This document shows, one piece after another, positions 3,806 through 4,573 of a DNA stretch of 11,787 nucleotides. Location of the stretch: NCBI GenBank assembly GCA_046761065.1, contig JBHIFL010000110.1:1-11787 (forward strand), in the 5' to 3' direction. The position numbers and the translations under genes were made by a program. Within the stretch, counting starts at the first letter, position 1; every line of letters begins with the position of its first letter. This DNA comes from Candidatus Heimdallarchaeota archaeon. Its GTDB lineage: Archaea > Asgardarchaeota > Wukongarchaeia > Wukongarchaeales > JBHIFL01. The notes beneath the pieces were generated by a model that did not search any database, had not been told where the DNA came from, and saw only the letters and a list, made by a program, of their open reading frames with translations.

Positions 3806-4573
3806 ATGGTTCTAAACTTAGAGAAAACAGCCAAAAATGAATATATATCCGGCCTTAAGATGTTAGGTTTATCGACTTATGAAGCATCAACCTTTTACAC
3901 TCTCATAACCCGCTCAGAGCTGACGGCTGCTGACCTCTGCTCCTTAACGGGTATTCCAGACTCCAAGATCTACCACACCCTCAATACTCTAGAGCAGAGA
4001 GGAATGATTGCTGTCCAAAAAGGACGTCCCAATCGTTTTAAGGCGCTAAAGCCAGATGAAGCGATGGCGAACTTGAAACATGGGCTGATTGAGGAGCACA
4101 GGCGGAAGTTGAGGATGTTAGAGGCGCTAACAACGAAGTTATTGACATTGTACGAGAGCATTGAAGGTAGGGAGGAGGTAGAACTCGCCTATATTATCCG
4201 CGGCATCAGAGGTATCCTCTATAAGATGAACAACCTAATCCGCCAAGCTCGCCGAAGTTTGCTTATATTCGTTTCTGACATGGAGATGTGGAGGGGGATC
4301 GAGCCATCAATCGTAGAGGCCGCAGGCCAAGGTGTCAAAATTTACCTAGGAATAACTAAGAATATCGAACAGACACCTATATTTGATCGACTTGGCACAG
4401 TAAAGTGGATTGACTGTCTTTGCGGCTTACTTGTAGTTGACGATCAGACGCTACTTGATATCACCGAGTGGCGTCCGAACGGGGCAATGGCTATCCTGAC
4501 ACAGGAACCAAACATTATCCGATTCACCTGGGAATACTACAAGAATCCTAAATGTTGCTCTCACGTAGAATAG
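3806..4573 (+). CDS. TrmB-family transcriptional regulator with Cys-containing effector domain
   Basis: TrmB wHTH (LGLSTYEASTFYTL...TGIPDSKIYHTLNTLEQRGMI...GRPNRFKAL), a coiled linker, then an effector domain (LIRQARRSLLI). CLC at 4415-4423 and CC at 4553-4558. SD AGGAG. Confidence 0.9.
   Translation: MVLNLEKTAKNEYISGLKMLGLSTYEASTFYTLITRSELTAADLCSLTGIPDSKIYHTLNTLEQRGMIAVQKGRPNRFKALKPDEAMANLKHGLIEEHRRKLRMLEALTTKLLTLYESIEGREEVELAYIIRGIRGILYKMNNLIRQARRSLLIFVSDMEMWRGIEPSIVEAAGQGVKIYLGITKNIEQTPIFDRLGTVKWIDCLCGLLVVDDQTLLDITEWRPNGAMAILTQEPNIIRFTWEYYKNPKCCSHVE

Follow-up and report, generated by a model that had tools for sequence, protein, structure and literature searches.

Positions 1–11,787 of contig JBHIFL010000110.1 from a Candidatus Heimdallarchaeota archaeon (assembly GCA_046761065.1; this whole stretch is called the window below) raise the question of which signal is read by a TrmB-family transcriptional regulator, here P0001, that is divergently transcribed from a minus-strand string of arsM-like, isf-like, hgcA, hgcB and cupin genes. 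An earlier note on this DNA had proposed that the protein is a TrmB regulator repurposed as a thiol-based metal or metalloid sensor, and at the level of sequence comparison every comparative test that we ran supports this idea. We observed that the regulator has a TrmB-like fold and belongs to a family with conserved cysteines, a conserved operator and neighbouring genes that co-vary with the cysteines. The reading that we favour, with a probability of about 0.6, is that it would act as an ArsR-like, thiolate-based, metal(loid)-responsive repressor on a TrmB scaffold, with As(III) as the favoured ligand; for As(III) specifically as the ligand we put the odds slightly short of even. The family as a whole is probably an undescribed arsenic or soft-metal switch, and our literature search found no paper describing a cysteine-bearing TrmB subfamily.

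The regulator gene and its cysteine codons, taken from the open reading frame (ORF) and its translation, lie in the window as follows.

3806–4573, plus strand: regulator gene P0001, 255 aa, cysteine-bearing TrmB subfamily (ORF and translation, Pfam, NCBIfam)
3938–3940, plus strand: codon of C45, the fifth cysteine of the protein, in helix 41–48 of the winged helix-turn-helix (wHTH) domain
4415–4423, plus strand: codons of C204-L-C206 (C204 at 4415–4417, C206 at 4421–4423), in the turn between strands 198–202 and 207–211 and within KWIDCLCGLL
4547–4558, plus strand: codons of the tail motif P-K-C250-C251 (C250 at 4553–4555, C251 at 4556–4558), [N/S]PxCC in the family; the protein ends YYKNPKCCSHVE

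The ORF is uninterrupted, and its product divides into a wHTH domain (residues 17–83), a long dimerisation helix (83–120), a single effector subdomain resembling the phospholipase D (PLD) fold (129–246) and the NPKCC tail (247–251). Both elements on which the earlier note had built its proposal, WIDCLCG with C204 and C206 and the YYKNPKCCSHVE tail with C250 and C251, are present in the translation. The TrmB DNA-binding domain PF01978 matches residues 17–83 with 64.8 bits (cut-off 25.6), which places the protein in the TrmB family, and the profile PF11495 (Regulator_TrmB) matches marginally (22.6 versus 22.2 bits) and over its positions 3–123 of 233 only. Judged by this profile coverage the regulator retains the first effector subdomain only, which is why, as the earlier note had remarked, it is shorter than full sugar-sensing TrmB (338 aa).

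Its relation to the characterised branches of the family is correspondingly loose. Against the equivalogs of sugar-sensing TrmB/TrmBL1 (NF040851, NF047390 and NF047392) it scores 42.8–62.2 bits where the cut-offs are 500–650, and since the chain stops at residue 255 it has no second effector subdomain, the part of TrmB that holds six of the seven sugar contacts, with the residues N305, G320, M321, V324, I325 and E326 (PMC4158304). That characterised TrmB proteins sense sugars, as the earlier note had it, is an incomplete account, as OxsR of Haloferax volcanii is a thiol-based TrmB-family regulator (PMC9426492) and TrmBL2 and MreA are not sugar sensors (PMC4158304). The TrmBL2 equivalog NF041141 gives 55.7 bits against a cut-off of 530, so that the likeness to TrmBL2 is one of fold and architecture only, and the ArsR-type helix-turn-helix (HTH) models stay below threshold as well (PF01022, 19.5 versus 22 bits; NF033788, 16.4 versus 55 bits). 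Nor is the protein of the OxsR type: it has 255 residues and an effector domain, no cysteine before residue 45 and no cysteine in the predicted dimer interface.

To place the cysteines in a family context we used a word-indexed search, which returned 42 relatives, and a genome scan, which gave 80 species-level loci in Bathyarchaeia, Thermoplasmata/Methanomassiliicoccales, Nitrososphaerota and Asgard archaea. By their sequences these relatives form a distinct subfamily that spans four archaeal groups. An alignment of 96 sequences, reaching ∼27% identity, shows C204, P248 and C251 each at least 90% conserved and the recognition-helix motif IPDSKIY invariant, and C204 together with the [N/S]PxCC tail is nearly universal in the subfamily. 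An exhaustive profile search revealed a step in the scores, with members that carry the cysteine signature above ∼140 bits and thousands of generic TrmB-like proteins of ∼250 aa below 130 bits, and these generic paralogs have none of the cysteines in question. The cysteine pattern of the regulator is, on this alignment evidence, more than chance.

The number of hairpin and tail cysteines among 140 unique members is four in 85, five in 20 and three in 20. The core consists of C204, C250 and C251. The fourth cysteine floats: it is found at position 206, at position 203 or at the very C-terminus. Of the 28 members with one hairpin cysteine, 13 carry an additional one in the tail, compared with 9 of the 91 with two or more (counts that ignore phylogeny), which is suggestive of compensation in several lineages. 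The cysteine motifs that the earlier note expected to be conserved are therefore kept in part: the C204/C250/C251 core holds across the four archaeal groups, but elsewhere C203 or an additional cysteine at the C-terminus takes the place of C206. Position 45 is Cys in the members from Bathyarchaeia, Asgard archaea and Nitrososphaerota; those from Thermoplasmata have Val, Met or Ile there, and most of the generic TrmB paralogs have Ser or Ala. In the cysteine-less sister clade described below the residue is Ser.

The genes that accompany these regulators were tallied within 3 kb in the 80 loci, by tblastn with the window proteins and inspection of ORFs rather than from automatic ORF calls.

ArsM-family gene: 52 of 80 loci, in 49 divergent and upstream
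ORF of 36–44 codons with 8–12 cysteines in the arsM slot: 9 of 80 loci
hgcAB directly adjoining: 4 of 80 loci
bona fide merA: 1 of 80 loci (518.6 versus 454.45 bits)
none of these neighbours: 11 of 80 loci
contig edge: 4 of 80 loci

An ArsM-family gene, hgcAB, merA or a cysteine-rich micro-ORF thus adjoins the regulator in 65 of the 76 loci with usable upstream sequence. Several of the neighbouring methyltransferases reach the NCBIfam ArsM cut-off of 263 bits (L007, 360; L016, 343; L023, 358; L048, 263.2), and in a set of 54 neighbour methyltransferases conservation is 85–96% for the CC at the N-terminus, the SNCVINL cysteine and the GC(I/V)xGA cysteine. The cysteine-rich micro-ORFs belong to arsM-less Thermoplasmata loci (L055, L059, L060, L065, L069, L073, L074, L075 and L077), where they lie on the opposite strand 46–107 nt upstream of the regulator start, and with their cysteines mostly arranged as CC repeats they look metallothionein-like. 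The merA gene stands two genes upstream of the regulator homolog in L035, a metagenome-assembled genome of Nitrososphaerota (7884–9209, minus strand, TIGR02053); the same locus encodes a small ArsR-family HTH protein at 9306–9644 on the minus strand.

The string opposite the regulator in the window follows this pattern.

2787–3716, minus strand: ArsM-like S-adenosylmethionine methyltransferase, P0044, 309 aa (PRK11873, PDB matches, cysteine conservation)
2111–2722, minus strand: Isf-like flavoprotein (FMN_red/flavodoxin-like) with a CRDCKSCNETGRC motif, 18 nt upstream of hgcA (Pfam)
1067–2092, minus strand: hgcA, corrinoid protein of mercury methylation (NF040863, 436.4 versus 275 bits; cap-helix motif NVWCAAGK)
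732–1070, minus strand: hgcB ferredoxin (NF040864, 108.2 versus 99 bits), overlapping the hgcA stop by 4 nt
281–655, minus strand: cupin gene of the same string

The best PDB matches of the ArsM-like protein are the arsenite methyltransferases 5evj, 8xt7 and 4fr0, and its sequence still has the N-terminal CC as well as both C-terminal cysteines of ArsM, C145 (SECVISL) and C195 (CSCIGGA). The isf-like flavoprotein, whose CRDCKSCNETGRC motif is compact and which is 88% conserved in the arsM-less relatives, is a candidate electron donor for HgcAB. The window regulator hence shows all three marks of the subfamily: a C204 equivalent with the [N/S]PxCC tail, an operator within 200 nt upstream (3738–3757, two mismatches) and a divergent ArsM-family or metal(loid) gene, here the arsM-like gene followed by isf-hgcAB.

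A natural experiment is provided by the nearest relatives of the regulator that lack the cysteines (P0003, P0005, P0007; P0009, P0010, P0013). Compared to the window protein they have Ser for C45 and Tyr for C206, and the CC tail is gone together with a five-residue loop. The loci of P0003 (L081–L083) are syntenic with the window and have the arsM-like gene deleted. Their HgcB and HgcA are 87%, their flavoprotein 88% and their HpaB 90.5% identical to those of the window, and the regulator, at 64% identity, is the most diverged of the shared proteins; domain-wise identities between P0001 and its cysteine-less relatives show no clear concentration of this divergence in the effector domain. P0009 likewise flanks hgcAB without arsM. 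In a tree rooted with generic TrmB paralogs the cysteine-less proteins form one clade (SH-aLRT 95), which is sister to P0001 (100) and nested within cysteine-bearing lineages, so that the loss of the cysteines is a single derived event. P0002 is intermediate, having lost C206 and the loop and kept C45, C204 and NPKCC (its upstream region is cut by a contig end). In the nearest cysteine-bearing relatives, P0004, P0006 and P0008, hgcAB is absent and a divergent methyltransferase is retained in every case. As the cysteine-less relatives flank hgcAB without arsM and these three keep the methyltransferase without hgcAB, the cysteines track arsM and not hgcAB, and on the comparison of these loci the cysteine set of the regulator is tied to arsM. 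Of the ars, hgc and mer neighbours with which the earlier note expected the cysteines to co-vary, arsM bears the expectation out (52 of 80 loci, with the cysteine set lost in the arsM-less clade), while hgcAB, still flanked by cysteine-less regulators, does not.

Two elements are found in the window in the intergenic region between the regulator and the arsM-like gene.

3738–3757, no strand: predicted operator CTACTAA-TAATTG-GCAGTAG, identical to the family consensus at 12 of 14 positions
3757–3778, no strand: palindromic TATA box TTTATAAA (3763–3770) with A-rich arms resembling the B recognition element (BRE; GAAAAC left, CTTTTTCT right)

Up to 200 nt upstream of the regulator, the palindrome CTACTAC-N6-GTAGTAG is present in 75 of the 80 loci, perfect in 36, with one mismatch in 31 and with two in 8, and the spacer is 6 nt in 72. 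The remaining 1.17 Mb of the loci hold 8 matches, several of which can be put down to wrongly placed start codons or to an additional site before a downstream arsM. A second operator copy (one mismatch) was seen at L044:10821–10840, downstream of the regulator and directly before an arsM gene on the same strand. The core of the operator, TACT-N10-AGTA, is made of TrmB-type half-sites, the published arrangements being TACT-N3-AGTA for TrmB and TACT-N7-8-GAGTA for VNG1451C (PMC4158304). The window operator lies between the arsM-like ATG (3716) and the palindromic TATA box, and by its sequence the 3757–3778 element is probably a shared bidirectional core promoter; its AGAAAAC-N9-GTTTTCT arrangement is seen again in L007, L037 and L049, and the layout recurs in Bathyarchaeia loci. 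What is conserved upstream is the CTACTAC/GTAGTAG dyad together with the A-rich arms that flank the TATA box. An outer palindrome, TGGCAG...CTGCCA (3749–3782), was considered as a further conserved element and rejected, as it is not kept in L081 or L086. The cysteine-less relatives have kept the CTACTAC/GTAGTAG elements and multiplied them as overlapping tandem dyads (L084, ∼7040–7100; L081, ∼4970–5010), from which it follows that their regulators probably still bind the same DNA.

The structure of the regulator was predicted with AlphaFold2 using the 96-sequence alignment. The model (pLDDT 92.2) consists of the wHTH, the 38-residue helix 83–120, and one alpha/beta subdomain whose last elements are helix 235–246 and a short terminal strand 251–253. 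Foldseek ranks TrmBL2 first (5box/5bpd; E 2.7e-18), TrmB (3qph) next and PLD-fold proteins after these. By the order of elements, the NPKCC tail would follow the helix equivalent to the sugar-recognition helix of TrmB. The homodimer prediction passed with an ipSAE of 0.71 (best of 3 controls 0.01), a mark that 20 of 30 proteins solved as one-chain pairs reach, compared with 1 of 23 single-chain proteins; these counts apply only roughly here, the input having been a custom alignment with a riding Zn. At least 88% of contacts are shared between the runs, the partner pLDDT is at least 80, and the predicted interface, made of helix 83–120 and the N-terminal helices, contains no cysteine. As solved TrmB and TrmBL2 dimers may already be known to the predictor, the pass shows likeness only. 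In the family alignment the hairpin C204-x-C206...D212 (window 4418–4441) occupies the place of the HxK...D motif of PLD-fold enzymes, and a later A-I-L-T-Q-E/D stretch that of their GSxN motif; H-x-H/K is still seen at the hairpin position in some generic TrmB paralogs. To judge from these motifs, the effector subdomain of TrmB resembles a degenerate PLD domain.

Repression, the clustering of the cysteines in space and the identity of the ligand are inferred parts of the following model. The regulator would act as a homodimer held by the long helix 83–120 and would bind the palindrome at 3738–3757, which separates the shared TATA box from the beginning of the divergent arsM-like gene. Bound there it would occlude the stretch that runs from the TATA box to the expected leftward transcription start, so that recruitment of RNA polymerase is blocked and the arsM-like gene is repressed. 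Relative to the rightward promoter its position would be immediately upstream of the BRE, which would allow autoregulation of either sign, and isf-hgcA-hgcB may come under its control through read-through. In place of the sugar-binding subdomain, three or four thiolates, from C204 (with C206) in the beta-hairpin and from the vicinal pair C250-C251, would make up the binding site. A thiophilic metal(loid) bound there, As(III) being the most probable one, would pin the tail to the effector domain and release the DNA. Three-thiolate (S3) sites for As(III) that combine a vicinal CC with a third cysteine are found in AfArsR (C95, C96, C102) and CgArsR (C15, C16, C55).

The alternative that survives best, although we consider it unlikely, is that the regulator is a thiol redox or electrophile switch of the OxsR, OhrR or YodB type, in which CxC/CC disulfides or alkylation would be the signal and the ArsM-like enzymes would be thiol methyltransferases. 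OxsR, with its intersubunit disulfide through C24, sets a precedent (PMC9426492), and an AhpD/CMD-like gene of 96–133 aa (e.g. L002:3438–3728, minus strand) stands between the regulator and arsM in ∼20 Bathyarchaeia loci, with a nitroreductase and an FMN reductase-type flavoprotein as further neighbours of this kind. However, the OxsR cysteine is located in helix alpha-1 of a 14-kDa protein, whereas the window regulator has its hairpin and tail cysteines in the effector domain and none in the N-terminal helix, and the dimer interface predicted for it is free of cysteines. The dominant partners are moreover metal(loid)-specific (bona fide ArsM, HgcAB, MerA and the metallothionein-like micro-ORFs), and the hosts are, to judge from their taxonomy, mostly strict anaerobes. 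NCBIfam holds ArsM-AhpD fusion models (NF041537; selenoproteins), which suggest that the AhpD-like gene serves ArsM and not a peroxide regulon; the AhpD/CMD-family gene may be a dedicated thiol-redox partner of ArsM.

Equally to be weighed, and also unlikely, is a sensor of Hg(II) whose cysteine site works as in MerR or the C-terminal CC of MerA, and whose main job would be the switching of hgcAB or, elsewhere, merA. Thiolate triads, like vicinal CC pairs, are by established chemistry avid ligands of Hg(II). The window has hgcA-hgcB in the gene string opposite the regulator, hgcA is the divergent gene directly behind the operator in L015, L017, L037 and L049, and L035 has its merA close by. 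Yet these 4 loci with hgcAB and the 1 with merA stand against 52 with arsM, and the cysteine-less clade still flanks hgcAB, so the cysteines follow arsM. Known regulators of hgcAB are an ArsR-like protein of Pseudodesulfovibrio mercurii ND132 and, as a proposal, an AbrB/PrlF-like archaeal gene (PMC10349881). The ND132 regulator is described as responsive to arsenic, and Hg-dependent transcription has not been reported in published work on hgcAB (Gionfriddo et al., cited in PMC10349881).

Very unlikely, finally, are cysteines with a structural or cofactor role (structural Zn, an Fe–S cluster or stabilisation of the tail) in a protein that reads another signal or, like TrmBL2, none: the best fold matches and the architecture are those of TrmBL2, which has no known ligand, and four cysteines are the usual count for Zn or Fe–S sites, but the TrmBL2 equivalog score is far below its cut-off, the specific conserved operator in its own promoter is unlike non-specific chromatin binding, 20 members with three cysteines and a floating fourth are unusual for Zn or Fe–S, and loss of the site together with arsM, while protein and operator persist, would not be expected.

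Several observations weigh against an ArsR-like, metal(loid)-responsive repressor or narrow what it could do. The methyltransferase of the window is diverged, with 156.7 bits for NCBIfam PRK11873 under the cut-off of 263, and is without the GCG-type cysteine, which leaves its substrate uncertain on sequence grounds. The 11 loci without any metal-related neighbour have to be counted here, as do the AhpD/CMD-like, nitroreductase and flavoprotein neighbours, which would fit a redox regulon too. The window operator carries two mismatches, and a search of its own genome at up to two mismatches gave 9 sites versus 16 for the reversed control, which is no enrichment; the best additional site, C10:13382–13401, falls between convergent gene ends, and no regulon can be inferred from it. 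While isf-hgcA-hgcB are closely packed (an 18-nt gap, then a 4-nt overlap), the 64–91-nt gap between the arsM-like gene and isf holds no T-run but one TATA-like element, and with this possible internal promoter element upstream of isf, control of the window hgcAB by the regulator is putative.

The source genome (4.4 Mb, 234 contigs) adds a further point of this kind. P0001 is its sole member of the subfamily, and the genome has two Acr3 genes, one beside ArsR, and a canonical ArsM (334 versus 263 bits; C15:55367–56131, L099:1501–2274, minus strand) that is divergent from a PadR-family regulator. This ArsM gene contains one in-frame TAG, for which a recoded codon, a lesion in a pseudogene and an error of sequencing are possible explanations. 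The Acr3 gene for arsenite efflux at C41:24780–25763 (L103; 410.6 bits) is transcribed divergently from the gene of an ArsR-family HTH protein and has a thioredoxin-like gene close by; by its gene content this is a conventional ars module. With ArsR beside Acr3 and a canonical ArsM beside PadR already in the genome, a further As(III) sensor is not obviously needed. The module of the window regulator is thus an addition to these, and a specialised one. Apart from these genes, the window carries three tandem paralogous genes at 6745–8293 (plus strand) whose products end in a zinc ribbon, a triplet that is kept in L081 and L082.

A bolder extension of the metal(loid)-responsive repressor is that one TrmB-derived thiolate sensor couples arsenic and mercury methylation in uncultured Asgard and Bathyarchaeia methylators, where the arsM repressor and its operator would have captured hgcAB. 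We regard this as doubtful. Should it hold, archaeal methylmercury production would be switched by exposure to arsenic or soft metals, the system would parallel, in archaea and with a non-homologous protein, the ArsR-hgcAB link in Pseudodesulfovibrio, and a sugar-sensor scaffold would have become a metalloid sensor by exchange of a subdomain for a five-residue cysteine tail. What governs hgcAB expression, and which native role HgcAB has, are questions that mercury biogeochemistry has yet to answer, and a widespread archaeal sensor family whose operator and cysteine set are defined, and which offers a natural cysteine-less ortholog as control, makes the question directly testable. If the metal(loid)-responsive reading is true, the family would represent a third or fourth independent protein scaffold for thiolate-based arsenic sensing, and would serve as a marker for metal(loid) regulons in Bathyarchaeia, Thermoplasmata and Asgard archaea among genes that are now labelled 'sugar-specific transcriptional regulator TrmB'. 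Our literature search found no paper that names both hgcA and TrmB, and the matches for TrmB with arsM and for TrmB with arsenite were irrelevant, none linking TrmB to either in the sense of a regulator.

For comparison, the system that the window regulator would resemble most in function is the ArsR/SmtB family (R773 ArsR, AfArsR, CgArsR and the hgcAB regulator of P. mercurii ND132). Both are dimeric winged-helix proteins, by prediction in the case of P0001, that are encoded divergently from or upstream of arsM or ars genes (and hgcAB) and have a palindromic operator in their own promoter. Both have a vicinal cysteine pair and at least one further cysteine as the presumed S3 site, and a thiophilic metalloid releases the repressor, for P0001 by analogy. 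There is, however, no homology beyond the generic wHTH: P0001 is twice the size and would dimerise through a long coiled-coil helix, and the cysteines of its presumed site are placed away from the DNA-binding domain, in a PLD-like effector domain of its own and in the C-terminal tail.

With TrmB/TrmBL1 (Tgr) of Thermococcales (3QPH, 2F5T) the regulator shares the PF01978 wHTH including the conserved Tyr of the recognition helix (Y56 in P0001), the coiled-coil dimerisation helix, the first effector subdomain and half-sites of the TACT/AGTA type, and position-dependent repression or activation is known for these proteins (PMC4158304). It differs from them in having no second effector subdomain, and they in turn lack its cysteine set. 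The archaeal chromatin protein TrmBL2 (PF0496/TK0471; 5BOX, 5BPD) has the same domain composition and nearly the same length (264 versus 255 aa) and is the best Foldseek match, but it is only ∼20% identical to P0001, binds DNA non-specifically and has no cysteine motif, whereas the P0001 family has a specific predicted operator and a specific gene partner. OxsR, in turn, has a DNA-binding domain of the TrmB family and cysteine chemistry as its sensing principle, the latter being putative for P0001. It is a 14-kDa single-domain protein (arCOG02242) with neither an effector domain nor a CC tail, and its one cysteine, C24 in helix alpha-1, forms an intersubunit disulfide under hypochlorite stress, with a CG-rich motif as the DNA sequence recognised (PMC9426492).

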